Assembly: GCA_038209745.1 (NCBI GenBank)
Contig: JBBQXJ010000015.1
Span: forward strand, 1 to 64,000
Length of the DNA stretch: 64,000 nucleotides
Origin: Verrucomicrobiota bacterium
GTDB taxonomy: Bacteria > Verrucomicrobiota > Verrucomicrobiia > Limisphaerales > CANJSG01
Reading direction: 5' to 3'
Shown: positions 40,109 through 56,351 of the stretch, one piece after another
Numbering within the stretch: the stretch's first letter is position 1
How the letters are laid out: the number at the start of each line of letters is the position of its first letter
Notes under the pieces: model-generated
Told to the model about the DNA's origin: nothing
What the model saw: only the letters and a program-made list of their open reading frames with translations
Databases searched by the model: none
Made by a program: the position numbers and the translations under genes

Positions 40109-40996
40109 GTGACCGGGGACCGACTTGATCGTGGCGTCCGCGTGACCCTTGCAGGGCTCGCGGTCAACACCCTGTTGGCCGGTGGCAAGTTCGTCGCGGG
40201 CGTCGTGGGCCATTCGCACGCCCTGGTCGCGGACGCAGTCGAATCGATGGCCGACATCGTCAGCTCCCTGGTGGTGTGGCGCGCCTTGGTCGTGGCCTCC
40301 GAGCCGCCCGACGAGGATCATCCCTACGGCCACGGCAAGGCCGAACCCATCGCGGCGGCCATCGTGGGCCTGTTTCTGCTGGCCGCCGCCGGGTTGATCG
40401 CGGTCCGGGCGATCGCGGAGATCATGACCCCGCATACCGCCCCGGCGCCGTTCACCCTGGTTGTGTTGATCGGCGTGATCGTGATCAAGGAAGGCATGTT
40501 CCGCTTCGCGCTGAAACGGGCCGATGAGCTGTCCAGCGCGGCCGTGCGTTCGGACGCCTGGCACCATCGAAGCGATGCGCTGACCTCGCTCGGTGCCGGC
40601 ATCGGCATTGCCGTCTCTTTGATTGGCGGCCACGGCTATGAGGCGGCCGATGACGTTGCGGCGCTCCTCGCATCGCTGCTCATCGCCTGGAACGGATGGA
40701 CGTTGGCGCGGCGGGCGGCCTCGGAGTTGATGGATACCGTCCCGGGAATCGGACTGAAGGCCGAGATCGCCGCCGTCGCCGCGGAGGTGACATTGGTCCA
40801 TTACGTCCAGAAATGCCTCGTCCGGCAGGCCGGCTACCACCTTTTCGTGGATATGCACGTGCATGTGGATCCAGAGATGAGCGTGCGCGAAGCCCATATC
40901 ATCGCCCATCGAATCAAGGACCGGGTCCGCCAACGCTTCCCCCGCGTGCATGATGTGCTCATCCACATCGAACCGGCCGAAAGGGCCGGGAGATGA
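40109..40996 (+). CDS. cation diffusion facilitator (FieF-like) transporter
   Basis: SHALVADAVES, PPDEDHPYGHGKAE, DAWHHRSD, AH.IAH..K, DVLIHIEP. Confidence 0.92.
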   Translation: MTGDRLDRGVRVTLAGLAVNTLLAGGKFVAGVVGHSHALVADAVESMADIVSSLVVWRALVVASEPPDEDHPYGHGKAEPIAAAIVGLFLLAAAGLIAVRAIAEIMTPHTAPAPFTLVVLIGVIVIKEGMFRFALKRADELSSAAVRSDAWHHRSDALTSLGAGIGIAVSLIGGHGYEAADDVAALLASLLIAWNGWTLARRAASELMDTVPGIGLKAEIAAVAAEVTLVHYVQKCLVRQAGYHLFVDMHVHVDPEMSVREAHIIAHRIKDRVRQRFPRVHDVLIHIEPAERAGR

Positions 40997-41011
40997 GCCG
41001 CAGGGTCTCTT

Positions 41012-41737
41012 TCAGTGGCCGTGCTGCAAGCCCTTAGAGTGCTGCCATGCGTGGATAACCGCGCCCAGGATCTCGTCCAGCCCGACGCCATGTTTGACTT
41101 GAGCGAAGACAATGGGGCCGTCGCCGCGCATCTTGCGGGCGTCGCGATCCATGACGGCCAGATCGGCCCCCACAGTGGCCGCGAGGTCGGTCTTGTTGAT
41201 GACGAGCAAGTCGCTCTGGGTGATGCCGGGGCCTCCTTTGCGCGGGATCTTGTCGCCGCCGGCCACGTCGATCACCTGGATGGTGAAGTCGGCCAGTTCG
41301 CGGCTGAAGCAGGCTGCGAGATTGTCGCCTCCGGACTCGATCAACAGGAGGTCGGGACGGAACTTCCGATGGAGTTCCTCCAACGCGAGCAGGTTGGCCG
41401 AAATGTCCTCCCTGATCGCCGCATGAGGGCAGCCGCCGGTTTCCACCGCGCGAATCCGATCCGCTTCCAAGGCGCCATTTTGGACGAGAAACTCGCCGTC
41501 TTCCCTGGTGAAAATATCGTTCGTTACCGCCGCGATCTCCATTGTCCTCCGCAGTCGTTGGCAGAGCTGCAGCATCAACGCGGTCTTCCCGCTGCCCACG
41601 GGGCCACCGACGCCGACGGTGAAGGCGCGATGATCATAGTTGCGCGCGTGCGCGGACTCTCGTTCCTCGAAGTGACCGGGATGTTCGAGGGGTTCGTGCG
41701 TGTGGCCGTGGGGCCCGTGTGAATGCGTGTGGTTCAT
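41012..41737 (-). CDS. ureG: urease accessory GTPase UreG with His-rich N-terminus
   Basis: [37 protein letters not shown]. Confidence 0.95.
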
Positions 41738-41751
41738 GGACGAGAGGCGGT

Positions 41752-42420
41752 TCAGCTTTGGAACAGTCGCGAATAGAGACGGTCCTGTGTCCCCTGGAAA
41801 ATATCCAAAAGAGGCGCGGTCTGCGCGATCTCTCCGGTCGAGCGCTGCGCGTTCCCTGCCGCGACCTCCTCGGCGACGGCGGAAAGGCGGTGCTGCAAGG
41901 CCTGTGCGGCGATGGGCCCGGCGATGCCGAGACGCACGGCGGCGCTGACTGCGCCGCGAAGTTGCTGGAACAGATAAAGGCGAAGCGCAAGCGAGCGCTG
42001 GATTTCCAATAGACGCGTGACGACGCCAAATACCGGCGCGAAATGTCCGTTCATTTCGCGAACCTGGGAGCGCAGCTCGCTCATCGCGCCCGAGGGGAAC
42101 GCTCGTTCGACCGACGACAGGAACGCCTGGCCCAGCGCGCGGCTGGCGCGGTTGGCGACATGATTGGCCGTGAACACATCGCAAAGCAAATCGAGTTCCA
42201 TGAGCCGTTGCGGATCGCGATGGGCATCGTTCACGAACGGCATCGCGGCCTGGCCGAACTGATGCAACGAGGCTTCAAGGAACCCCGCGAGTTGCGTCTC
42301 GGTGCGCACTTCGCCGAGTTGCCACGCGGCTTCGAGCCCGCCGGAGTGGCCGAAGCCTCCCGCCGGAAACGCAGAGTCGGCCAGTTGCCAGACGAGCCAG
42401 TCTTGCCGCGGATTCGGCAT
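41752..42420 (-). CDS. ureF: urease accessory protein UreF
   Basis: [26 protein letters not shown], terminal YSRLFQS. Confidence 0.92.
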
Positions 42421-44135
42421 CAGAAGAGGAAGTAGCGTTGCGCAAGCGGCAAAGAGGTCGCCGGTTCGCACTGGAGCAGTTCGCCATCGGCTGTCACCCG
42501 ATACGTCTCGGGATCGACGGTGATGAACGGCGTTGCATCGTTCCATTTCATGTCGCGCTTGGTAAGCTTCCGGCAACCACGCACAGCTTCGATGCGCTTG
42601 TTCAAACCGTAGCCGGCGGCGACCCCCATGTCGCGACAGAGCGCGCTGACGAAGGCGATGGAAACCGGTCCCGGTGCGGAACCGAACGCGCCGAACATCG
42701 GCCGCATGGAAACCGGCTGCGGCGTGGGAATGGATGCGTTCGGATCCCCCATCTGCGCCCAGGCGATGATGCCGCCTTTCAGAACCATCTCCGGTTTCGC
42801 GCCGAAGAACGCCGGCTTCCACAGCACAAGATCGGCGAGCTTCCCGACCTCGATCGAGCCGATCACATGGGCCATGCCGTGCGAGATGGCGGGGTTGATC
42901 GTGTATTTCGCGACGTAGCGCTTGATGCGGAGATTGTCGTTTTCACCGCGTTCTCCCGCCAGCCGTCCTCGTTGCTGGCGCATCTTGTGCGCGGTCTGCC
43001 ATGTGCGCGTGATCACCTCGCCCACGCGTCCCATCGCCTGTGAATCAGAACTCATCATGCTGATCGCGCCGAGATCGTGAAGGATGTCCTCGGCAGCGAT
43101 CGTCTCGCCGCGGATGCGGCTCTCGGCGAACGCGACGTCCTCCGGCAGGTTCGGATCGAGATGGTGGCAGACCATCAACATGTCGAGGTGTTCGTCGAGC
43201 GTGTTGACCGTGTAGGGTCGGGTCGGGTTCGTGGAGCTCGGCAGCACGTTCATCTCACCGCAGACCCGGATGATGTCCGGTGCATGGCCGCCGCCGGCAC
43301 CCTCGGAATGATAGGTGTGGATCGTGCGCCCCTTGAACGCGGCGATGGTGGCCTCGACGAAGCCCGACTCGTTTAGCGTGTCGGAGTGAATCGTGACCTG
43401 GACGTCGTGCTCGTCGGCGACCGTCAGACAGCAGTCGATCGCCGCAGGCGAGGTTCCCCAGTCCTCGTGCAGCTTGAGGCCGACGGCGCCGCCAAGGATC
43501 TGCTCGGACAACCCCTGCGGCATGGAGGTGTTTCCTTTGCCGGTGAAACCGAAATTGAGCGGCAGCCCGTCCGTGGCCTGCAGCATCATCCGCAGATGGT
43601 GCGCGCCGGGGGTACAGGTCGTCGCGCTCGTGCCCGTAGCCGGGCCTGTCCCGCCGCCGACGAACGTCGTGAGGCCGCTCGCAATGGCCTCATGGGCCTG
43701 TTGCGGGCAGATGAAGTGGATATGCGAATCGATGCCGCCCGCAGTGACTATCAGGCCTTCGCCCGCGATGACCTCGGTCGTGACGCCAAAGACCATCCCC
43801 GGCGTGACGCCGGCCATTACATCGGGATTGCCAGCCTTGCCGAGGCCTGCGATGAGGCCGTTCTTGATGCCGATGTCGCACTTGTAGATGCCTGTGTAAT
43901 CTACGACGAGCGCGTTGGTGATGACGCAATCGAGCGCCCCGGCTTGACCCACGCCTGCTGCCTGGCCCATGCCTTCGCGCAGCACCTTTCCGCCGCCGAA
44001 TTTGCATTCGTCGCCGAACACGGCGAAATCCCTCTCCACTTCCAGCACGAGGCCGGTGTCGCCGAGGCGGACTTTGTCGCCGGTCGTCGGGCCGAACATG
44101 TCGGCGTAGTGGCTTCGCTTCATGATGTGCGGCAT
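42420..44135 (-). CDS. ureC: urease alpha (catalytic) subunit
   Basis: [59 protein letters not shown]. Confidence 0.97.
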
Positions 44136-44137
44136 GG

Positions 44138-44902
44138 TCAATTCTCCTTGTTCGCGAAACCGGCGGTCTTGATCCGCTCGAGAGCAGCCTGCCTGCCCGC
44201 TTCCGATACCGGGCCGCTGGCCAGATTGTTGCCGCCTCGGATCACTTTGGCGCCGGCGATCTCGACCAACGCGACCGTCTTTGTCTCCCCGGGTTCGAAG
44301 CGCACCGCCGTGCCGGCCGGAATATCGAGGCGTTTGCCGTAGGCGCTTCCGCGGTCGAATTGAAGCTGTGAGTTCGTCTCGACGAAATGGTAGTGGCTGC
44401 CGACCTGGACCGGACGATCGCCCAGATTGGTGACCGCCAACGAAACACCCGGACGGCCCTCGTTCAACGTCAGCTCGCCCTCTCGCACGGTCATGGCTCC
44501 CGGGGCGGGTTCCTCGGCCTCCGCCGCGGCTTTGAACAGCGAAAGTTCCGGCACCGAAATGAAGCTGCCGTACAGCGCGAGCCCCAGATCGCCGTCCTCG
44601 GAAGCGATCGGGTGATGTACGGTCACGAGCTTCGAGCCGTCCGGAAACGTGCCTTCGACCTGCACGTCTTCGATCATGGAAGGAACGCCGGGCATGACCT
44701 GGTTCCGGCCCAGAAGCTTTTTCCCGAGATCCATCAGCTCGGCGACACGGCGGCCGTCACGGATGAACTCCAACAATTGCGTGGCGATGAGCGCCACCGC
44801 CTCCGGATGGTTGAGACGCCGGCCGCGCGCGAGACGCTTCTGCGCGAGGAATCCGGCGTTGTGGAGCATCAACTTGTCGATTTCGCGCGGGGAGAGATGC
44901 AT
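44138..44902 (-). CDS. ureAB: fused urease gamma/beta subunit
   Basis: [28 protein letters not shown] (gamma) followed by [30 protein letters not shown] (beta). Confidence 0.95.
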
Positions 44903-44929
44903 GGAAGGAAGGCGAGTTGAGATTTGTCG

Positions 44930-45799
44930 TCACCATTTGCGCGCCCAAGGATCATCGCCCAGCAACGCTGCCACGAAACGCAGGCGGCGGCAGAGTTCGT
45001 GGCCAACCTGCTCGGTACCGGCGCCCGCCATCCGGAGCAAGGCGCCGCCGGGCACCGGACTCGCCGAACACACAAGACCACTGCGGCGGGAAATGGGCAA
45101 CGTGGCAATCTCGGCGAGCAGACATTCCGCGTTGGCGCGCATGGGTTCGCCCATCAGCAGCAGGAGCGCGACACAATTGAACCTGCCCATGCGGGCAGGA
45201 TCCGAGAGGACCCCGTCTCGTGGGTCCAAGGAAACGGAATCGATGAGGACGGGTTTGCCGTCCACGACGACATCGGTGCGGCTGCAATAGCGGGAGAAAT
45301 CCCACCGTTCGCCGCACGCGGCGCGGCCCGAACCGAGCCAGTCCACCAGCACGAGCCCGGAACTGGACGCCAGTTCGATGCGCTGCCGCTGTTCGTAGAT
45401 CGATTTCGCGAAGCATTGCACCGGATCGGGCGCGAGCACGAGCACTGCGTCCGGACCCGACGAGGCGAGCAGGTCATGGCGACAGGGGAATCCGTCCGGA
45501 TTGCGATAGATTTTTGTCGAGGACTGGGTTCCAAGGAAACAGCGCGCACCCTCACCGACAATGACTTCGAGGCGGGTTTGATCGCCCGCGACATAGCCGC
45601 CGCCGAGGCCGCTCGTGTAGGCCCACACGCTCGGGCCGCGCGGTTTCGGTACAAGGATCTTCAGAGGACTGAGCGCACGGACGCCCGTCGCGGCGCTCAA
45701 GCCGGAGACGAGCCGGACTTCAAGTCGACCGGCGCCGGCGCCGGAGGTTTCAGGGGCTGGAACGAAGCCCGCCGTCGGGTTCAAGGATGCCGTCCCCAC
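44930..45799 (-). CDS. ureD: urease accessory protein UreD
   Basis: SPLKIL, GGGYVAGDQ, TQSSTKIY, PDPVQCF, GRAACGERWDF; start uncertain (ORF open to 45868). Confidence 0.88.
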   Translation of the reverse strand: MGTASLNPTAGFVPAPETSGAGAGRLEVRLVSGLSAATGVRALSPLKILVPKPRGPSVWAYTSGLGGGYVAGDQTRLEVIVGEGARCFLGTQSSTKIYRNPDGFPCRHDLLASSGPDAVLVLAPDPVQCFAKSIYEQRQRIELASSSGLVLVDWLGSGRAACGERWDFSRYCSRTDVVVDGKPVLIDSVSLDPRDGVLSDPARMGRFNCVALLLLMGEPMRANAECLLAEIATLPISRRSGLVCSASPVPGGALLRMAGAGTEQVGHELCRRLRFVAALLGDDPWARKW

Positions 45800-45938
45800 G
45801 GGATAGTGCCGGTGTCCAACAGGTCGCGGGCAAGGCGTGAAACGGGGGGGAACGAGCCAACCAGGCAAGCTACGCGCTGATCGGGCCAGGAGATGGAACC
45901 GGATTTTCGGGCAACCTGGAGGACTTGCATGGTTTGAC

Positions 45939-46634
45939 TCAGACCGTGAGATGTCGGCGGACGGTCTCGTTGTTCAATTCTTTCATCGGACCCGATGCGA
46001 CCACCGCGCCGCGATCCATGATGTAGAAGCTGTCGCCGACGCCGAGGCAGAAGTCGAGATACTGCTCGACCAGAAGGATGCTGATCTTTCCCTCGTTCTT
46101 GATCTTCACGAGGGTCTCGCCGATCAGGTCGATGATGTTCGGCTGAATGCCTTCGGTGGGTTCGTCGAGAATGAGGATCTTGGGATCGGTCAACAAAGCG
46201 CGGGCGATGGCGAGCTGCTGCTGCTGGCCGCCGGAGAGCACACCGCCTTTGCGCTGGAGGAATTCCTTGAGGATCGGGAACAGCTCCAATACGCGGTCGG
46301 TCTGGCCCGCGTCCTTCACGCCATGGACGACCCTGCTGATCTTCAGGTTTTCCCAGACCGTGAGGTGCGGAAAGATGTCGCGCCCTTGCGGCACGTACCC
46401 TAGGCCAGCGCGGGAACGGCCGTCGGCTTTCATACCATCAAGAACCCGCCCTTCGAGCGACACCTGTCCCTCGTCGACCGGGACCAGTCCCATGATGGCC
46501 TTGAGCGTGGTGGTCTTGCCGACGCCGTTGCGGCCCATGAGACAGACGAGGCTGTTCTTCGGCACGGTCAGGTTGACCCCGCGCAGGATGCGGGAGCCGT
46601 CGTAGGACACCGAAATGTCGGAAAGGGTCAGCAT
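45939..46634 (-). CDS. urtE: urea ABC transporter ATP-binding subunit
   Basis: GRNGVGKTT, YVPQGRDIF, LSGGQQQQLAIARAL, DEPTEGIQP, VEQYLDF. Confidence 0.92.
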   Translation of the reverse strand: MLTLSDISVSYDGSRILRGVNLTVPKNSLVCLMGRNGVGKTTTLKAIMGLVPVDEGQVSLEGRVLDGMKADGRSRAGLGYVPQGRDIFPHLTVWENLKISRVVHGVKDAGQTDRVLELFPILKEFLQRKGGVLSGGQQQQLAIARALLTDPKILILDEPTEGIQPNIIDLIGETLVKIKNEGKISILLVEQYLDFCLGVGDSFYIMDRGAVVASGPMKELNNETVRRHLTV

Positions 46635-46707
46635 CGGGGAGAGGAGTAATGGAGTTTTGTTTTGTGCAGCAACCCAACACTCCAATACTCCCTTGGGCCA
46701 GGGGGAC

Positions 46708-47472
46708 TCATCCGTGCTTCTCCTTCTTCTTCCGGCCGAGATAGACCTCGATCACCCGCTCGTCGTTCTGGACCTCGTCCACGGAGCCTTCGCAGAGGAC
46801 GTGGCCCTGGTGGAGCACGGTCACCTTCCGCGCGATCTGGCGGACGAAGACCATGTCGTGCTCGATCACGACGATGCTGTGTTTGCCGGCCAGGCTCATG
46901 AGGAGCTCTCCCGTCTTGGCCGTCTCCTCATCGGTCATGCCGGCGGCCGGCTCGTCGACGAGGAGGAGCTTAGGATCCTGCGCCAGCAGCATGCCGATCT
47001 CGAGCCACTGCTTCTGACCGTGGGCCAGCGAGCCGGCCTTCACCTTGGCCTTGGAGGCCAGGCCGACGGTTTCGAGAACTTCCTGGATCCGGTCCCTCTG
47101 CGCGTCCGTTATCCTGGAAAACAGGGTGGACCAGACGCTTCGACTCCCCCGGAGCGAGAGGAGGAGGTTCTCGTGGACGGAGTGGTCGACATAGACCGAG
47201 GGCGTCTGGAACTTCCGCCCGATGCCAAGACGGTTGATCTGATACTCGTTAAGCCGGGTCAGGTCGGTATCCGCCTCGAACTCGATCTTGCCGGCATCGG
47301 GACGGGTGCGACCGGTGATCAGGTCCAGGAAAGAGGTCTTGCCTGCGCCATTCGGTCCGATGATCACGCGCAGCTCGCCCCGGTCCATATAGAAGTTCAG
47401 GTCCGAGATGGCCTTGAAGCCGTCGAACGTCTTGGTGACGCCCTCCACGGCGAGGATGAATTCCTTGTTCAT
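46708..47472 (-). CDS. urtD: urea ABC transporter ATP-binding subunit
   Basis: [46 protein letters not shown]. Confidence 0.93.
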
Positions 47473-49007
47473 TCTTTGGTGGAGGATTCCAGCTCCGGCT
47501 TGGCCGCAGCCGGCGGTGGAGCCGTGGGCTTCTTGGACAGCTTCTTGATGATGGCCCGGAGCTGGCTGGGCAGGCCGATGATCCCCCGGGGCATGAAGAG
47601 CGTCACGAAGACGAACAGGCCGCCGAGAATGTAAGGCCACTGTTCGGCGAAGTTGTGCGTCGCGTAGCTCTTCAGCGAGTTGATCCCGATGGCGCCGAGG
47701 ATCGGCCCCAGGAGATTGCCGCGTCCGCCGACCGAGACCCAGATGACCGCCTCGATGGATTTCTCCGGCGACATTTCACTCGGGTTGATCCCGCCGATCT
47801 GCGGCACGGAGAGCGCCCCGCCAAGCGCCGCGATCACGGCCGCGACGACGAAGACGAACAGCTTGAAGTCGGCCGTGGCGTAGCCCGAGAAGAGCACGCG
47901 GTTTTCCGAGTCGCGGACCGCCCGTTGGATCAGTCCGAAACGTGTCGAAGTGAGCCATCGGCAGAAGAGATAGGTGAGCAGCAGCAGGACGCCGGACGCG
48001 ATGTAGAGGGCGCGTTTGGTCGATGGATCGTTGATGATGTAGCCGGTGAATCCCTTGTGCGTGACAACCCCAGGATAGGCTTCTTCGAGCAGCTGCCGAT
48101 TGAGCTTCAGCATGTCGGCGTCGCGCGGTGTCTCCGCGATCCTTGCTTTGGCAGAGTCGGAAAGGGCGATCCCGGCGAACCGTTGCTCGCTGTAGATTGG
48201 CGACGTGGCCATCGTCCGGTTCAGCTCGTCGGCCACGACCTGCTCCATCTCGGCGGACTTGCCGGCGGCGGCCAGTTCGGACACCCGGGTTTGGTTGGTT
48301 GGACCGAACTGGCTCCAGAGATATTTCGACACGCCATCTCCACCCTTCTCGAGTCGGTTGGCGAAGGCGACGGGATCCTTGATCTCGCCGACTGCGAGCG
48401 AGGGCGTGCCGAGCATGAACTTGAAGTCGGTCAGTCCGTTGTTCCCGCCGAAGGTGAAGTCGTTCCTGAAGAACATCAGGCAAGCCGCGTAGGTCAACGC
48501 TTGGCTGAGGATGGAGAAGTAGACGCCCTTGATCCGTGAGCGGAAGGCGAGAAACCCGAACCCATAGGCGAGGATCGCGGGCACAAGCACCATGGCTAGC
48601 AGCGCGACCCATAGATGTTTGAAGGGAATCCAATGCGACGGGAAGCCACCGGTGGCGGCATACTTGGTCTGGTATTCCAGGAACACCATGAAGTCCGGCA
48701 CGGCCTCGTGATACTGGCCGAGCCGGCTAATGTTCATCATTAGATACATGCCGAATGCGTAGCCGCCGAGGGAGAAGAAGAGGCACTGGCCGAGGCTGAG
48801 CAGTCCCGTGTAGCCCCAGAGGAGATTCACGCCGAGGGCGAGGACCGCGTAGGTGAGATACTTGCCGTAGCGGTTGAGGGAAAGATCCGTGACGTGGAAC
48901 CACGAGCCGGAGGGAACGAAGGCGTTGAGGCAGGGCAGCACGACGAGACCGATCAACGCCGCCAGGGCGATGAAAAGCAGTTCGCGTTTCGTGAAAGGTC
49001 CAGCCAT
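47469..49007 (-). CDS. urtC: urea ABC transporter permease UrtC with inserted soluble domain
   Basis: [61 protein letters not shown]. Confidence 0.9.
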
Positions 49008-49720
49008 CAGGGTGTGCGTTGCGCGGGTGCGGCCTGCGAACGGCAGCGGTGATGGAGCGTGTCCTTCCAGTTCCAGGGCAGCGCGGGGCATTCGGACAAC
49101 GCCTTCGCTCCGGCGATGTCGCCTTTTTCGTGGTGCATGATCCGGGTGCTCCGCGAGACCGTCCACTCCGAGTGCGGACGCCGGACGAGGCTGAAGGGTT
49201 GACCCGCCCGGACCGATCCGTGACCCAGCGGGCGGAAATAGAAGCCGGTGCGGCCGGTCTGGAGAATGCCGTTGGCGAGATCCTTTGCTTTCCAGCGGCG
49301 CGAAAGTTTCCAGCACGGTTCGCGCGGTTGGCTCACCTGCAAGATTGCCTCGCCGATCTCGAAGACGTCGCCGACGCAGACTTCGTCTTCCAACGGGCCC
49401 AAAGTGGTGATGTTCTCGCCGAAGGCTCCGAACGGAAGCGAAGGCAGCCCGAGCTCACCGCGCCAAAAAGCATAGTGCTCAACCGGGTAGACGCAGACCG
49501 CCTTGTCCATGCCGCCGTGAACCCGCAGGTCGGCCACGCGGTCGCCTTCCAATCCCAGGGGGCCCAGCCAAACGTCGCCTGCGAACGACTCCTTGAAGAT
49601 ACCAGAGGTCCATTCCTTGTCCCACCATTCCTCCGATCCTGCGGGCGCCGCGGTGCCAGGCGTCCCCAGCTGAAGGGAGGCCAAGATCGAAGCGGCTGTT
49701 TTGGTGGTTGAACCGTTCAT
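49007..49720 (-). CDS. MOSC-domain molybdoprotein (YiiM-like, with 3-alpha domain)
   Basis: [43 protein letters not shown] (Moco Cys), TGRTGFYFR; 1-nt overlaps with both urtB and urtC. Confidence 0.92.
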
Positions 49721-51444
49721 CAGCCGTCGAGGCTCCGGCTGCGGGTGACGAAGATCCCGTTCGGGCGCCATTGCAGGAAGAGGATGATCGCAACCAGCAC
49801 GGCGATCTTTCCGAGGACGGCGCCCATCCAGGGTTCAAGGATCTGGTTGGCGACGCCCACTCCGCCGGAGGCCGTCACCGTGCCCACGATGTTTCCGACA
49901 CCGCCGAGCACCACGACCATGAAACAGTCGATCACGTAGCTCTGGCCGAGGCTGGGACCGACGTTCGCGATCTGCGAGAGGCAGGCGCCCGCCATGCCAG
50001 CTAGGCCCGAGCCGAGGGCGAAGGTCATCATGTTCACCCGGTCGGTGCGGACGCCGATGCACGAAGCCATCGCGCGGTTCTGCATGACCGCGCGGATCTG
50101 GAGGCCGAGCGACGTCTTCGTCAGCAGCAGATAGGTGCCGTAGACGATGGCCACGGCGAAACAGATGATGAAGATCCGGTTGTAGGCGAACCCGACGTCG
50201 TTGACCACGACGCTGCCGGTCAGAAAGGAAGGCGCGGACACGTCGACGTTGGCCGCGCCAAAGGTATGCCGGAAGAGCTGCTGGAGAATCAGGCTCACGC
50301 CCCAGGTGGCCAGGAGCGATTCCAGCGGACGTTTGTAGAGGAAGCGGATGACGGTGCGTTCCAGGATGAGACCTAGGAGGGCGCCGGTGACGAAGGACGC
50401 AACGAGCGCGACGATAAAATAGAGGTCGAAGGCGCCGCCTTTCAGTCCCATGCCGCCCACCGAAACCGTCTTGCCGAAGAGGGAGAAGAGGAAGCCGCCG
50501 CCGAAGATCCCCTGCAAGGCGAACGCGGTGTAGGCGCCGACGGCCATGATCTCTCCATGGGCCATGTTGATGACGTTCATCAGCCCGAAAGTAATGGCGA
50601 GCCCAAGCGCCGCGACCAGCAGCACCGCCGAGAGACTGAGACCGCGGAACAGGGTTCCGACGAGGTTGCCCCACCAGAGGTAGTTGTCGATCGACTGGAC
50701 GGCGGAGCGCAGGGTCTTCGGAGTCTCCGGGCCAAATTTTCCAGGATTGGCTTTGCACTCCTGCTCCATGTCGCGGAGCAGGGAGACCCCGTTGACCGAA
50801 CGCATGTCTCCCAGGTTTTGGATGGCGGCATTGCGGACGGCGGGATCGTCGCTGGCGGTGAGGGTGAGCGCGATCGCCTCGTGGAGGGCCTTGATGGCTT
50901 CGGCATTCTTTTCAACCTTCAACCGGGCTTCGAAGTTCGGTAGAAACTCGGGGTTCCGCTGCTGGCCGAGCTTGGTCGCGGTGTCGCGGCGCATCTTCGG
51001 CAACGGGTGGGCCAGGGCGAAGAGGTCGAGCGTGGTCTTGATGGCACGGCGGAGCTTGGACGTGTTGTCGGCCGGGGTGAGATCCGACACGGCGAAATGC
51101 AGCTCCTTGCCGGAGGCGTCGGTGATGAACTTGCCGTCGCGGATGCGGATGCCCTTTGCCTTGCCGTCGGTGTCCAGCTGGGTGTCGAGGACGATGGGCG
51201 AATTGGTTCCGCCCGGTGATTCGTAGAGGTAGAGCTCGCTGAGACGCCAAGCGATCAAGCCTCGTTCCACGAGGTCGTCTCCGGAGTCGACGAGCTGCTG
51301 CACCATCTCGCTCTGCTTCGAGGCGTCTTGCTCGAGCACCGCGTCGGCCAGGACGACGCGGTAGTCTGGCGCCGTTGCTTCCGCCCCGCAGGACGGGGCG
51401 ATCACGGCGAAACAAAAGACGAGCAGGCTGAGAATGCGTTTCAC
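49720..51444 (-). CDS. urtB: urea ABC transporter permease UrtB with periplasmic HEAT-like N-terminal region
   Basis: GLAITFGLMNVINMAHGE, LYKRPLESLLATWG, RAVMQNR, FMVVVLGGVG, QWRPNG. Confidence 0.92.
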   Translation of the reverse strand: MKRILSLLVFCFAVIAPSCGAEATAPDYRVVLADAVLEQDASKQSEMVQQLVDSGDDLVERGLIAWRLSELYLYESPGGTNSPIVLDTQLDTDGKAKGIRIRDGKFITDASGKELHFAVSDLTPADNTSKLRRAIKTTLDLFALAHPLPKMRRDTATKLGQQRNPEFLPNFEARLKVEKNAEAIKALHEAIALTLTASDDPAVRNAAIQNLGDMRSVNGVSLLRDMEQECKANPGKFGPETPKTLRSAVQSIDNYLWWGNLVGTLFRGLSLSAVLLVAALGLAITFGLMNVINMAHGEIMAVGAYTAFALQGIFGGGFLFSLFGKTVSVGGMGLKGGAFDLYFIVALVASFVTGALLGLILERTVIRFLYKRPLESLLATWGVSLILQQLFRHTFGAANVDVSAPSFLTGSVVVNDVGFAYNRIFIICFAVAIVYGTYLLLTKTSLGLQIRAVMQNRAMASCIGVRTDRVNMMTFALGSGLAGMAGACLSQIANVGPSLGQSYVIDCFMVVVLGGVGNIVGTVTASGGVGVANQILEPWMGAVLGKIAVLVAIILFLQWRPNGIFVTRSRSLDG

Positions 51445-51485
51445 GATCGGTCAGTCTCGCCACGGGGCGAACCAGGGAAAAGCGG

Positions 51486-51590
51486 GGAGCGCGGGTCCAG
51501 GCCGGCGACGGTTCCTCCACCCAACAAAAAACGGAATCCGACAGGCTGGCTTCCGGTGCTGGCATTCCGCCGACCGGATGCCCGCGCTCC
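51486..51590. repeat. REP-like inverted repeat in the urtA-urtB spacer
   Basis: GGAGCGCGGG(51486)..CCCGCGCTCC(51590) arms. Confidence 0.5.
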
Positions 51591-51619
51591 AAAAGGGGAT
51601 CTCCGGTTGTTCAGGAGCC

Positions 51620-51653
51620 GGAAGGAGCGGACCCCGCAGGATCCGCTCCTTCC
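51620..51653 (-). terminator. strong hairpin immediately after urtA (partial terminator or mRNA stabiliser)
   Basis: GGAAGGAGCGGA-N10-TCCGCTCCTTCC perfect 12-bp stem. Confidence 0.6.
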
Positions 51654-51665
51654 TTCAGACAAAGC

Positions 51666-52898
51666 TTACTTCAGGAACTTCGCGCTGAAGGGCTCGGCGG
51701 CGACCTGCCTAAAGGTCTTGATGACCTTGAACTGTCCGGTCGGAAGGGTCTCTCCGATGAACACGTCGTTGATCAGGTGATGGTTCGCCTGCATCGTGAC
51801 TTCGGCCACGGGGCCCTTGAACTTCTGGCCGATGAGGGCGGGGCGGACCTTGTCCACCTCGAAGCTGCCCGCCTTCTCGACCGCCTGTTTCCAGAGATAC
51901 ACACCCATGCGGGAGAGGTTCATCGGGGAGCAGGTGACGCGGCCCTTGGGATCGACGCCGGAGACGGTGTAGTCGATGCCATAGATCTTCGGATCTTGCA
52001 CCCAAGAGAGGAAGTCGCCCACGAACTTCGTGTTCTCAGGCGTCTTGATGGACATGAAGTAGGTCCAGCAGCCGAGGTGGCCCGCGAGCTGCTTTGCGGG
52101 AAGGCCGCGGAACTCGTCTTCGGAAATCGAGAAGGAGACGACCGGACAATTCTCGGAGGTAAGGCCCGCGTTGGCGAACTCCTTGAAGAACGGGACGTTT
52201 GTGTCGCCGTTCAGCGTGGAGATGACGGTGGCGTTGCCGCCAGCGGCAAACTTCTTGATGTCCGAGACAATGGTCTGGTAGTCGGTGTGGCCGAAGGGGG
52301 TGTAGATCTCGACGATGTCGGAATCGGGGATGCCCTTCATCTTGAGATACTGCTTCAGGATCTTGTTCGTGGTGCGCGGATAGACGTAGTCGGATCCGAG
52401 CAGGAAAAACTTCTTCTTCCCTTCCCCGAGCATGTAGTCGACGGCGGGGATAGCCTGCTGGTTCACGGCTTCGGCGGTGTAGAAGATGTTCTGGGAAAGC
52501 TCCTCGCCCTCATACTGCACCGGGTAGAAAAGCAGGCCGTTGTGCTGTTCAAACTTGGGCAGCGCGAACTTGCGGCTCACCGAGGTCCAGCAGCCGAAGA
52601 CGACCGCGACCTTGTCCTTCACCAGCAGCTCCTCGGCCTTCTCCGCAAATGTGGGCCAGTCCGACTTCGGATCAACCACGACGGGCTCAATCATCTTGCC
52701 CATGACCCCGCCGGATTTGTTGACCTCGTCGAACGTGAACAGAAGAACGTCTTTCAGCGAGGTTTCGCTGATCGCCATAGTGCCGCTCAGGGAATGCAGC
52801 ACGCCCACTTTGACCGTGTCAGCGGCATGGAGAGGGCCAGTCAGACCGACAGCGAGACAGGCCAAGGTTGAAAGTGTTGTCTTGAAGATTGATATCAT
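51666..52898 (-). CDS. urtA: urea ABC transporter substrate-binding protein
   Basis: signal peptide; [54 protein letters not shown]. Confidence 0.93.
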
Positions 52899-53028
52899 AG
52901 GTGAAATGGCGATAGAGTGGTGGTTTTGCTTGTCTGTGTTCAGTCGGTTTGGGGATGGGTTGGACCGAAGCCATAGGGCGAGAGAAATCGAATTGCGCTC
53001 GGAGTCACGCCAATCATATCTCTTGATT

Positions 53029-53044
53029 AGCATCTGAGATGCCA
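53029..53044 (-). promoter_or_regulatory. sigma-54 (-24/-12) promoter of the urt-ure cluster
   Basis: minus strand TGGCATCTCAGATGCT fits GG-N10-GC, about 130 nt upstream of urtA. Confidence 0.65.
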
Positions 53045-53557
53045 CCACTCCGCTCCAGTCGGTGCATCAACAGAAGTTGGCCATAAATCCGCCAAAGACC
53101 TCCGAAGAGTTCATTCAATCACCGCGCCCGACCGCCAAGTTTGGCTCAAGCCGTCCAGAACCTAGCAGCGAATTGGGCTGGTTGTTCAATTCGCCGCACC
53201 CACAAGGCAGTCGGAAGAAAGCGGTGCTGAATCGGCGGCGCAAGCCACGCCCGCCAAGCGATCCGCTCGCGGCCCCTCTCACGACAAAATCACCCAGAGA
53301 CGATTTGAAGGAGTTCCTGCCTGATAGCCGAAAGGCCGGAGACATCGCCGCCTGATCTGTCCCCTGGCCGATGTGACCATATGTCGCTCCACGTCATGAC
53401 CAATCTCCAAGGTGCCGGAGTCCTAGGGAGGCCCGCCGAACCAATTGCCCGAGATCAACCCTGCTGGAACCCGGGGGATTGGCGCCACCTCTCAAGCCAA
53501 TAATCCATCCACCGATAACCTCCTGACGCTCGCCCGTTCAACGTGCGCCGCAGACTA

Positions 53558-54853
53558 ATGAAGAAAATCCTCATCATCGAAGACGACACCATCACGGCGA
53601 ACGTCTATAGCAACCGCTTCCGCGTCGAGGGCTTCCAAGTCGAGGTCGCGGCGGACGGCGAAGCGGGCTTGGCGGCGGTCCGGAGTTTTCAGCCCGACGT
53701 TATCACCTGCGACCTGATGATGCCGAAACGCAACGGAGTCGAGGTCATCAGGGCCATCCGGGCGGATCCGTCGATCTCTTCCATCCCCATCATCGTCTTC
53801 TCGAACTCCTATCTGAGCACGATGATCAAGGATGCCTGGGCGGCGGGCGCCTCCAAGTGCCTTTCCAAGGCCGACTGCACCCCGAAACATCTCATCGAGA
53901 TCATCCAGAACCTGATCGCGACCCAGGCGGGTGGGGGCAGAGCGGTTGTCCCCGGACCGCCCGGCCAGACGCATGTCATGGCGAGGGCCCAGGCGGTCGT
54001 CGGTGCGACTGCGTTCGTTTCCAGAACGCCCCATCAGCAGAACTCCGGCACGCAGTTCCTGCGGGCCGGAGGGACGAACGGCGGCGCGGCGGCCGGCGAC
54101 AAGAGCGACGCCGAGGTGGCGATGCAGGGTCTGCTCAGGAAGAATTTCTTCGAGACCGCCCCCAAGGAGATGACCGTGTTCCGATCGATCATGTCGTCGC
54201 TGGGCAAGAGCGAGGATCTGGCCGCCCGTCCCCAGGCGATGACCGATCTGGCTCGTCGAATGAAAACACTGGCCAGCGCGGCGGGTATGCTTTCGTTCCG
54301 CACCTTCGCCACTTTGACTTCCGCCATGGAGGCCTTTGCCCGCGAGCTCACCGAGAAGCCGGAACAGATCAACACCTCCAGTCTTCGTACGTTGGTCCAA
54401 GCCGTCGACTTTCTGCCGACCCTTTTGGAGAAGTGCCTTCTGCCAGAGGCGACTAACAACCTCTCGCCCCACATCCTGGTGGTGGATGACGAACCGTTGT
54501 CGCGCCGGGCGCTGGTCACCGCCCTGAGCCGGGCCGATCTGCGCAGCATCCAGATCGACGACCCGACCATCGCCTTGCGGCTGGTCGAGCAGAATCAATT
54601 CGACCTGATCTTCACGGACGTCGATATGCCGGTCCTAAGCGGATTCGATCTGTGCACCAAGATCCGGGCACTGCCCGACTCGGCCCGCACCCCGGTGATT
54701 TTCGTGACAAGCAACACGGACTTTTCCAGTCGGGCGAAGTCAACACTGAGCGGTGGAAGCGACTTCATCGGAAAACCGTTCCTCTTCATGGAGGTGGCGG
54801 TGAAGGCCCTGACCCATCATCTGCGCGCGATGGACGCCGGGACCGCTCGGTAG
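53558..54853 (+). CDS. response regulator: REC - HPt-like - REC
   Basis: KILIIEDD..CDLMMP..SK; central helical domain; HILVVDDE..TDVDMP..GKP. Confidence 0.88.
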   Translation: MKKILIIEDDTITANVYSNRFRVEGFQVEVAADGEAGLAAVRSFQPDVITCDLMMPKRNGVEVIRAIRADPSISSIPIIVFSNSYLSTMIKDAWAAGASKCLSKADCTPKHLIEIIQNLIATQAGGGRAVVPGPPGQTHVMARAQAVVGATAFVSRTPHQQNSGTQFLRAGGTNGGAAAGDKSDAEVAMQGLLRKNFFETAPKEMTVFRSIMSSLGKSEDLAARPQAMTDLARRMKTLASAAGMLSFRTFATLTSAMEAFARELTEKPEQINTSSLRTLVQAVDFLPTLLEKCLLPEATNNLSPHILVVDDEPLSRRALVTALSRADLRSIQIDDPTIALRLVEQNQFDLIFTDVDMPVLSGFDLCTKIRALPDSARTPVIFVTSNTDFSSRAKSTLSGGSDFIGKPFLFMEVAVKALTHHLRAMDAGTAR

Positions 54854-54937: not shown

Positions 54938-56149
54938 TTAGAACAGATAGATGATGTTCGCGGTGACCGAGACGGCGTCGTGGTCGGTGGACGGCTTGCC
55001 ACCAGCAACCGTACCACCGAAAATCCCATCAGGGGAGTGGTCCCAGCGGAGTTCACCGCGGCTGATGACGTTCTTCCAGAGCGAGTAGTCGCCCGTGAAG
55101 GTGAACGAGTAGAGCTGGTCGTTGTTTCCGGGAGTGTTGCCGGTTCCGAACGCGTTCTGCGTGCCGGTGGCGACATCGAAGCGGCCGTTCAGCTTGAACT
55201 TCTCGGTGGCCTGATAGGACAGGTAGACCGCGACGGCTTGGGCCCAATCCTTGTCGCCGGCGGCGGTCTTGTATTGCTGGCCGGTGGTGTAGTCCCATGC
55301 GAGCCCGAGGCTCAGGCCCGTGACGGGCAGCGGGATGCTGGCGCCGACGTAGTAATTCTCCTGGATACGGTTGGCGACCGTGTTGTAGAGGCCCTGGGTG
55401 GCATCGCCTTCGGTGTAACCGAGGGTGAGGGTGGCACCATGGAGGAAACCGAAGCTCTCAGGCGCGATCAGGTTGATCATGCCGAGATAGGCCTTGCGGG
55501 ACTCGCTGGTCTGCGAGGCATCGACCTGGTTGTTGTAGCCCGCCGTATTGCCGACACCTGCCATCACGCTGAGGAAGTCGGCCACCTGGTAGCTGGCGGA
55601 CACGCCGACATGGGCCGAGGACTCGATGTAGAAGCCGTAGGAGCGGCTCCAGTTCGGGTTCTTGTAGGTATCGTAGGCTTCGTAGCCGTTGTAGGTGCCG
55701 AACTGGCCGACTTTGAAGTCGATGCCGTTGCCCACGGGGACGCGAAGCGCGACGTAGGCTTCGTTGAAGCCGATATCGCCGGCCGAGCCGCCGAGAAGCG
55801 ATCGGGTTCCGCGCTTGACCGCGCCGGGCCCGATCAGGGTCTGGACATGGTAGCCGGCGGACCACTGGTTTTCGTCGAGGGGCTTGTCGAGCGTCAGGCT
55901 GACGACATTCAGGTTGAAGCCATCCTGGTTGTAGCTGCCTGCTCCGCCGTCATAGACGCGGCCGGGCATGGCCCGGTCGCCGGTCCCAAACTTCCAAGTG
56001 CCGGTCACATCCACGTAGCCGCTCAGGGTCGTGCTGGCGACCTTGGTCAGCACGGGGGAGAGCATCATCTTTTCTTCGGCATGGCCGACCGACGCGAGGC
56101 CGACCACCCCGAGGGAAGCCAGACCGAGTGTCCATTTGTTAACGTTCAT
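54938..56149 (-). CDS. outer-membrane beta-barrel porin (BBP2-like)
   Basis: AGGAGG RBS; signal peptide; LSGYVD, FNEAYV, GQFGTYNGYE, NPNWSRSY; terminal IIYLF beta-signal. Confidence 0.85.
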   Translation of the reverse strand: MNVNKWTLGLASLGVVGLASVGHAEEKMMLSPVLTKVASTTLSGYVDVTGTWKFGTGDRAMPGRVYDGGAGSYNQDGFNLNVVSLTLDKPLDENQWSAGYHVQTLIGPGAVKRGTRSLLGGSAGDIGFNEAYVALRVPVGNGIDFKVGQFGTYNGYEAYDTYKNPNWSRSYGFYIESSAHVGVSASYQVADFLSVMAGVGNTAGYNNQVDASQTSESRKAYLGMINLIAPESFGFLHGATLTLGYTEGDATQGLYNTVANRIQENYYVGASIPLPVTGLSLGLAWDYTTGQQYKTAAGDKDWAQAVAVYLSYQATEKFKLNGRFDVATGTQNAFGTGNTPGNNDQLYSFTFTGDYSLWKNVISRGELRWDHSPDGIFGGTVAGGKPSTDHDAVSVTANIIYLF

Positions 56150-56351
56150 ATCGTAGTTCCTCCTGCGTATGGTTGTTGTTGTGTGCGTTGTTTTGCGGGC
56201 AAAAAAATCTGCCCAGTCGTGGCAGAACGCCACGCATTGGGGGAGTAGATAGGTCAACGGCGCTCCGGTTGACAATACCTTTTTGGACCTTGGAACCTTA
56301 AGTCCCGAGGCCGGATTGCCGATCCTGATCGGATGATCCGACGTCGGATCG

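Follow-up and report, generated by a model that had tools for sequence, protein, structure and literature searches.

Why should the gene of a molybdenum cofactor (Moco) enzyme lie between the two permease genes of a urea transporter? The question is raised by a stretch of 64,000 nucleotides from a Verrucomicrobiota bacterium of the Limisphaerales (hereafter the window: positions 1 to 64,000 of the forward strand of contig JBBQXJ010000015.1, GenBank assembly GCA_038209745.1), in which a YiiM-family gene with a MOSC domain is found on the minus strand at 49007-49720, between urtB and urtC of a urea ATP-binding cassette (ABC) transporter operon. We conclude that the operon is a lineage-restricted, previously undescribed variant of the urt-ure operon, and that the protein is an additional member of a known family. 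In the explanation that we prefer, and to which we give about an even chance of being right, a generic reductase of N-hydroxy compounds was taken up into the urea-scavenging operon in a single lineage and gained the operon's regulation. The original prediction, made from the letters of the window, saw in the same gene order a nitrogen-scavenging module that imports urea-like N-hydroxy compounds and reduces them with the MOSC enzyme.

An intact gene coupled to both neighbours

The frame 49007-49720 has no internal stops and encodes a protein of 237 amino acids (aa; P0001) that contains the motif QPREPC. On the minus strand the stop codon of urtB (TGA, 49722-49720) and the start codon of the MOSC gene (ATG, 49720-49718) have one A in common, and so do the MOSC stop codon (TGA, 49009-49007) and the urtC start codon (ATG, 49007-49005). 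An intact YiiM-like gene with QPREPC between urtB and urtC, and one-nucleotide TGATG overlaps at 49720 and 49007, had both been claimed in the original prediction; the former is borne out by the Pfam domains and the uninterrupted 237-aa frame, and the latter can be read directly from the sequence. The overlap of urtC with urtD is similar in style (ATGA at 47472-47469). An alternative, longer frame of the MOSC gene exists from an ATG at 49771. Because alignments with homologues begin no earlier than residue 13 of the 237-aa form, and because the genes of relatives start past the urtB stop, the true start is likely to be at 49720 rather than at 49771.

The gene order in the window is not an assembly artefact, since DNA contigs of public sequencing runs, which come from two studies, bridge both the MOSC/urtC junction (X1 record 3 and X3 record 20) and the urtB/MOSC junction (X2 record 15, X3 record 22 and X4 record 30), and since five other loci, described below, show a matching architecture.

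Identity of the protein and supply of its cofactor

At E <= 0.001, the Pfam scan of the 237-aa protein identified a MOSC domain (PF03473, residues 64-175, 115.7 bits vs. a gathering score of 22.7) and the YiiM 3-alpha domain (YiiM_3-alpha, PF03475, residues 186-225, 35.2 bits vs. 22.7) and nothing else, i.e. no ferredoxin domain and no mARC-type extra domain. MOSC proteins of the mARC/YcbX type are defined by an additional N-terminal MOSC-associated beta-barrel domain. Residues 36-229 match the solved YiiM structures from Geobacillus stearothermophilus (5yhh_A, E 9.3e-48) and E. coli (5yhi_A, E 8e-36). Cys136, the cysteine of QPREPC, aligns with that of VSQPRQPC in 5yhh and of VSQPRSPC in 5yhi, and is invariant in 108 other homologues. 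In the pertinent passages of PMC5818509 this MOSC cysteine is C119 of the G. stearothermophilus protein and C120 of the E. coli protein, placed beside the molybdenum, and residues R55, A56, N87, Q115, R117, S118, S200 and W201 of E. coli YiiM are given as Moco contacts from a docking model. When these were mapped by hand from our alignment, A74, N103, Q131, R133 and W218 of the window protein proved identical to the modelled contacts, while K73 takes the place of R55, E134 that of S118, and N217 that of S200, which is the modelled contact to the Moco phosphate. Against NF008577, the equivalog model for 6-hydroxyaminopurine reductase, the window protein scores 148.7 bits, below the cut-off of 294, which none of the 11 matches in 400 other, evenly sampled Verrucomicrobiota genomes (hereafter the phylum sample) reaches either. 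Judged by its sequence, the window gene is a member of the YiiM family, but it falls short of the NCBI threshold for an equivalog of the E. coli enzyme.

The window genome (92% complete) carries the Moco biosynthesis genes that the original prediction presupposed, encoding MoaA, MoaC, MoaE and MoeA. With these, Moco could be made, and a supply of the cofactor for the embedded YiiM is plausible. Two MOSC matches were found in the genome, of which the second is a stand-alone MOSC protein of 218 aa that lacks the 3-alpha domain and is encoded next to glycosyltransferase genes; no YiiM-type gene other than the embedded one was found there.

How far the embedding extends

Scans of species genomes (the best 80 of 119 relatives) and of metagenomes (the best 80 of 146) together gave 160 homologue loci. 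Among the 80 species-genome loci, whose flanks, up to 6 kb and on many contigs shorter, were compared by tblastn with the Urt and urease proteins of the window, only L001, from a Verrucomicrobiota metagenome-assembled genome, shows the order urtA-urtB-MOSC-urtC-urtD, with a MOSC protein 63% identical to that of the window; the other 79 have no urt gene inside the flanks, and five of them show just distant generic ABC ATPases (24-29% identity). In the metagenomes the MOSC gene is directly followed by urtC in four of the 80 loci (L093, L094, L095 and L131) and in none of the other 76. The resulting five embedded loci (5/160) hold the MOSC genes closest to that of the window (59-66% identity), and the homologues with 58% identity or less all sit elsewhere. 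The overlap between the MOSC stop and the urtC start takes the form ATGA in L001, L093 and L131, whereas L094 and L095 have TGATG like the window; where the other junction is covered in relatives (L001, L093, L094), urtB stops about 10-15 nucleotides ahead of the MOSC start. At the DNA level L093 and L131 are 99.97% identical and represent one population, and the identity is 93% for L001/L093, 94% for L094/L095 and 78% for L001/L094. We count the window and the five loci as five distinct genotypes in three deep lineages. No independent insertion of a MOSC gene into a urt operon was found among the 160 homologue loci, which come from many phyla. The embedding is conserved but narrow, being restricted to one small group of uncultured Verrucomicrobiota.

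urt operons without the gene

A search of 60 relatives for homologues of P0001 (E <= 1e-10) gave matches in three: G002, G033, and G032 with a distant one. Within the genus of the window YiiM is patchy (two of seven genomes), and when five genomes of the genus were searched with the window UrtC, only G005 gave a match; G002 has urtC as well. G005 has the order urtA-B-C-D-E-ureD-AB-C, in which urtB abuts urtC, and no MOSC gene. G002, which is closest to the window by Urt identity (UrtA 92%, UrtB 78%, UrtC 79%), has urtA-B-C-D with urtC directly after urtB and no MOSC gene between them, and encodes its YiiM, 54% identical to that of the window, on a separate contig. In G033, from the same order as the window, urtB likewise abuts urtC with no MOSC gene between them, and YiiM is non-embedded.

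UrtC is present in 50 genomes of the phylum sample, and we compared 50 of the 54 urtC places, from 47 genomes (places in G104, G302 and G333 were left out). urtB abuts urtC in all 50, and no MOSC match was found in these 50 Verrucomicrobiota urt loci; together with G002, G005 and G033 they agree with the statement of the original prediction that urtABCDE is normally contiguous. The sole interruption was seen in L179 (genome G452), where urtB ends at 787, urtC starts at 1411, and a gene for a 125-aa 23S_rRNA_IVP four-helix-bundle protein lies on the opposite strand at 859-1236. Genes unrelated to each other have entered the urtB-urtC junction on at least two occasions.

Surroundings of the non-embedded homologues

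YiiM is rare in the phylum sample, with a YiiM-type match (E <= 1e-15) in 10 of the 400 genomes. Neighbours of the homologues were studied by a Pfam scan of 72 open reading frames (ORFs) from 25 loci, picked from 158 listed, of which 70 were flanking ORFs (24 loci) and two the MOSC ORFs of L013 and L088. In four of the five loci with cyanobacterial titles (L005, L007, L008 and L010, and not L006) a divergent gene for a 119-aa HxlR-family regulator lies about 300-400 nucleotides upstream of the YiiM homologue, and an EamA transporter gene is found downstream of it in L006 and L007. These neighbours suggest a stress or detoxification regulon for the cyanobacterial YiiM group. In Paenibacillus (L014) the neighbours encode a molybdopterin oxidoreductase, a MobA-like protein and MoaA, and the verrucomicrobial and planctomycete loci have housekeeping neighbours. 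No nitrogen-assimilation genes were seen among the scanned neighbours of the 24 non-embedded loci. The picture is that of a stand-alone enzyme of a detoxification type.

Origin, selection and history of the embedded gene

A quick maximum-likelihood tree was calculated from 114 rows, comprising the window copy and every tblastn segment that spans 170 or more query residues, which excludes shorter ones such as L095 and L131. In this tree the four embedded copies of full length group together in one clade, with a Shimodaira-Hasegawa-like approximate likelihood ratio (SH-aLRT) support of 84, and this clade is nested in a six-row clade (98) together with the non-embedded YiiM of G002 and G033. We infer from this nesting that the embedded gene derives from YiiM genes local to these Verrucomicrobiota and entered the operon a single time, i.e. 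that the embedded copies have a single origin. The original prediction had asked whether such genes form a clade, and would have counted a linkage unique to the window genome against itself; the five further loci speak in its favour on both counts. The window MOSC protein shares 60-63% identity with its embedded counterparts in L001 and L094, and 53% with YiiM of G002. Pairwise ratios of non-synonymous to synonymous divergence (dN/dS) among the embedded copies are 0.14-0.20, with dS above 1.3, and hence saturated, in all pairs apart from L001-L093 (dS 0.18, dN/dS 0.19); the embedded gene is under purifying selection.

Of 26 positions conserved to at least 90% across the 108 other homologues, 25 are retained in the window copy. 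The exception is position 164, with Val in 99% of the 108, Pro in the window and Thr in the three other embedded copies. At position 74 the window and all of the 108 have Ala, and the three other embedded copies have Ser. Few other changes are confined to the embedded copies; one of them is Asn217, at the place of S200 of E. coli YiiM.

The history of the operon does not run parallel to the presence of the gene. The split of the window, G002 and G005 from L001, L093 and G033 is marked by 7 diagnostic columns in UrtA and 24 in UrtB, vs. 2 and 7 columns for a split by MOSC presence; presence of the gene is thus at odds with the Urt tree, which argues for repeated loss or transfer. Either the embedding would be old, with clean loss in G002 and G005, or the gene would have moved between related operons. 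Under either history close relatives do without the gene, which would make it accessory. We also considered a recombination tract that brought in the flanks together with the MOSC gene and found no sign of it, as the 3' end of urtB and the 5' end of urtC stay closest to G002: the C-terminus of the window UrtB is 97% identical to that of G002 and 82% to that of L001, and the N-terminus of UrtC is 72% identical to G002, 68% to L001 and 60% to L094. When the non-embedded YiiM locus of G002 (L088) was searched for in the window genome, it yielded only the MOSC gene and short ABC-ATPase matches, and for this reason a translocation cannot be traced.

The urea transporter and urease genes

The embedded gene is part of a single tightly packed row on the minus strand between 41.0 and 53.0 kb, urtA-urtB-YiiM/MOSC-urtC-urtD-urtE-ureD-ureAB-ureC-ureF-ureG, so that it does lie upstream of urease genes, as originally predicted. 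All five components of the Urt system score above NCBIfam equivalog or exception cut-offs and follow the usual order: urtA (51666-53048; TIGR03407, 504.1 bits vs. a cut-off of 492.75; Peripla_BP_5, 2.8e-134), the permease gene urtB (49720-51444; TIGR03409, residues 264-570, 377 bits vs. 250.3), the permease gene urtC (47469-49007, 512 aa; TIGR03408, matched in two stretches, 377 bits vs. 296.2), and the ATPase genes urtD (46708-47472, the likely start being the ATG at 47472; TIGR03411, 376.7 bits vs. 304.1) and urtE (45939-46685; TIGR03410, 308.6 bits vs. 285.8). UrtA is 85-92% identical between operons with and without the MOSC gene, and only 2 of the 227 UrtA columns compared separate MOSC-bearing from MOSC-free operons, too few to be interpreted as a specificity signature.

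The two permeases have peculiarities of their own. UrtB has an N-terminal extension of about 260 aa (50665-51444, minus strand) with a hydrophobic start and a sub-threshold match to HEAT_2 (23.7 bits vs. 27.7), which by tblastn is common to most of the verrucomicrobial urt loci compared. UrtC contains an insert of about 112 aa between membrane segments (residues ~203-318; window ~48054-48400, minus strand), which is not of low complexity and has no Pfam match. This insert is common only to G002 of the same genus (78% identity over the full 512 aa), and is absent from G005, G033, L001, L093, L094, L131 and all 50 urt loci of the phylum sample.

The urease cluster (41012-45868, minus strand) comprises ureD for the accessory protein (44930-45868; PF01774, 4.1e-48), ureAB, in which the genes for the gamma and beta subunits are fused (44138-44902; NF009671, 331.9 bits vs. 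243), ureC for the alpha subunit (42420-44141; TIGR01792, 963.8 bits vs. 680), and then ureF and ureG (41012-42420; PF01730 UreF, 1.4e-28, and PF02492 cobW/UreG, 1.8e-37). The exact starts of the last two are not fixed: the UreF domain occupies residues 172-313 of a long ORF and the UreG domain residues 189-359, and the listed ORFs (41752-42822 and 41012-42184) start too far upstream. Among the ORFs scanned ureE was not seen between ureC and ureF, no genome-wide search for it having been made. A scan of 40900-53700 for promoters and terminators gave one promoter-like site and ten terminator-like sites, about as many as in shuffled sequence (1.7 and 9.6). Upstream of urtA, a divergent gene (53543-54853, plus strand) encodes a protein in which an Hpt domain is combined with two receiver domains, and further upstream a BBP2/OmpL-like beta-barrel porin is encoded (54938-56275, minus strand); the two may represent a regulator and an outer-membrane entry route for the urea system.

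What the embedded enzyme may do

In the explanation that we prefer, the gene that came to lie between urtB and urtC in a single lineage of uncultured Verrucomicrobiota encodes an ordinary cytoplasmic YiiM-type Moco enzyme that would reduce N-hydroxylated compounds (R-N-OH to R-NH). Through the tight stop/start coupling on both sides it would be transcribed and translated together with the urea transporter and urease, so that YiiM would be made whenever the cell turns on urea scavenging, presumably with some benefit from the co-regulation. The broad detoxifying or salvaging job of the family would most likely be kept, because this is the sole YiiM-type gene found in the genome, and the position in the operon would supply regulation and no new substrate. 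The small number of differences in UrtA and of clade-specific changes in the enzyme supports this explanation, as there is no sign of an altered transporter or enzyme. Three points weigh against it. A generic function would leave unexplained why tight coupling is found across three deep lineages (28-40% amino-acid divergence); the changes at position 164 and at Asn217 in the embedded clade make some functional shift possible; and UrtC is present in 7 of the 10 YiiM-positive genomes of the phylum sample vs. 43 of the other 390 (Fisher p 3e-5). This last association is a weak one, in which lineage and probably also genome size act as confounders: an exact within-family permutation gives p 0.067 (expected 5.0, observed 7), and in none of those phylum-sample genomes are the YiiM and UrtC genes near one another.

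The co-occurrence would also suit a pathway along the lines of the original prediction, in which N-hydroxyurea or small hydroxamates (e.g. acetohydroxamate) enter via Urt or otherwise and are reduced by YiiM to urea or amides, feeding urease and/or shielding nickel urease and ribonucleotide reductase from these inhibitors. We regard this pathway as unlikely. It can appeal to the fixed step of YiiM with transporter and urease, where the gene is kept under purifying selection, to the presence of Moco supply genes, and to the clade-specific changes at V164 and N217. Contact with such compounds in soil or sediment is conceivable in nature: D-cycloserine biosynthesis passes through hydroxyurea, which hydroxylamine and cyanate can also yield, and hydroxamate siderophores give rise to compounds of the acetohydroxamate kind. 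The chemistry has a precedent in the superfamily, as human mARC1 acts on N-hydroxyurea and hydroxamic acids in the portion of PMC10637980 devoted to it, and a review (PMC6737895) gives both hydroxyurea and acetohydroxamic acid as inhibitors of urease. The same portion of PMC10637980, however, documents N-hydroxyurea reduction for human mARC1 and for no YiiM, and reports that this substrate strongly favours mARC1 over mARC2, E. coli YiiM being mARC2-like in redox potential. At the Pfam threshold used, the window protein has MOSC and 3-alpha domains only and not the mARC architecture. The pathway is plausible as chemistry, then, but by extrapolation from a different MOSC subfamily, and the comparative data add nothing to the combination of Urt import and MOSC reduction: UrtA carries no specificity signature, the nearest relatives G002, G005 and G033 run urt-ure without the gene, as do 50 of the 50 other Verrucomicrobiota urt loci, there is no independent recurrence among the 160 homologue loci, and the linkage is confined to one small lineage with almost no clade-specific change in the enzyme. 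We likewise regard it as unlikely that the embedded YiiM is a dedicated reductase of N-hydroxyurea and short hydroxamates that forms with Urt and urease a three-step module of import, reduction and hydrolysis. Alternatively, YiiM might have landed in the urtB-urtC junction by chance as a neutral passenger, its position without adaptive meaning, and have persisted as the only YiiM copy of the cell and because clean excision is rare. That the junction accepts foreign genes (the 23S_rRNA_IVP gene on the opposite strand in L179), that MOSC presence does not follow the Urt protein tree (2 + 7 columns vs. 7 + 24) and that YiiM is patchy in the genus all fit such a history, but the tight coupling on both sides has been kept in three deep lineages, which points to selection for co-expression, and the arrangement has outlasted the saturation of synonymous sites. 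We consider neutral persistence rather unlikely.

The significance of the locus lies in the fixed place of YiiM, flanked by the two permease genes of a high-affinity urea importer and upstream of urease, a rare genomic context that points to a concrete candidate substrate class. In the passages on bacterial MOSC proteins in PMC10637980 and PMC5818509, the physiological substrates of these proteins, YiiM included, are described as unknown, and only resistance to artificial or rare base analogues as demonstrated. Were the three-step module real, it would allow Verrucomicrobiota of sediment and soil to survive, and to feed on, natural inhibitors of urease and ribonucleotide reductase, and a physiological substrate would for the first time be known for a bacterial MOSC protein. 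The arrangement occurs in only a few uncultured lineages, whose closest relatives can dispense with it. Even then the pathway would represent a niche adaptation and not a general nitrogen pathway.

Relation to known systems

The original prediction took its module to be undescribed, and a full-text literature search, subscription journals excepted, found no description of a MOSC gene in a urt operon. The matches to 'urtB' with 'MOSC' that were read were due to 'moscoviensis' or lay outside the main text, and 'UrtA' with 'hydroxyurea' returned one relevant review, which in the part concerned merely names hydroxyurea as a urease inhibitor (PMC6737895).

The closest known proteins are YiiM of E. 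coli and G. stearothermophilus (PDB 5YHI, 1O65 and 5YHH), Moco-dependent 6-N-hydroxylaminopurine resistance proteins with which the window protein shares the MOSC domain, the C-terminal 3-alpha bundle and the QPRxPC cysteine. The counterparts of N87, Q115, R117 and W201 of E. coli YiiM are identical in the window protein; unlike the genes of these known proteins, the window gene does not stand alone and lies inside a urea-transporter operon, and its product stays below the NF008577 cut-off. According to the relevant sections of PMC10637980, YiiM and YcbX reduce N-hydroxylated compounds, as does mARC, and E. coli YiiM does not reduce N-oxides. E. coli YcbX, which combines a MOSC domain with a 2Fe-2S ferredoxin domain and works with CysJ, shares with YiiM its reaction class and the phenotype of base-analogue detoxification in the corresponding sections of PMC5818509, where mARC is said to receive its electrons from cytochrome b5 and its reductase and the electron partner of YiiM is given as unknown. 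In contrast to YcbX, the window protein gave no Pfam match to a ferredoxin domain. Human mARC1 (mitochondrial amidoxime reducing component) is, like the window protein, a molybdoenzyme of the MOSC superfamily, but it belongs to a different subfamily. With the canonical urtABCDE and urease operons the window shares the gene order, continued by ureD-AB-C-F-G, and it differs from them by the 112-aa insert in UrtC and by an enzyme gene placed between the two permease genes.

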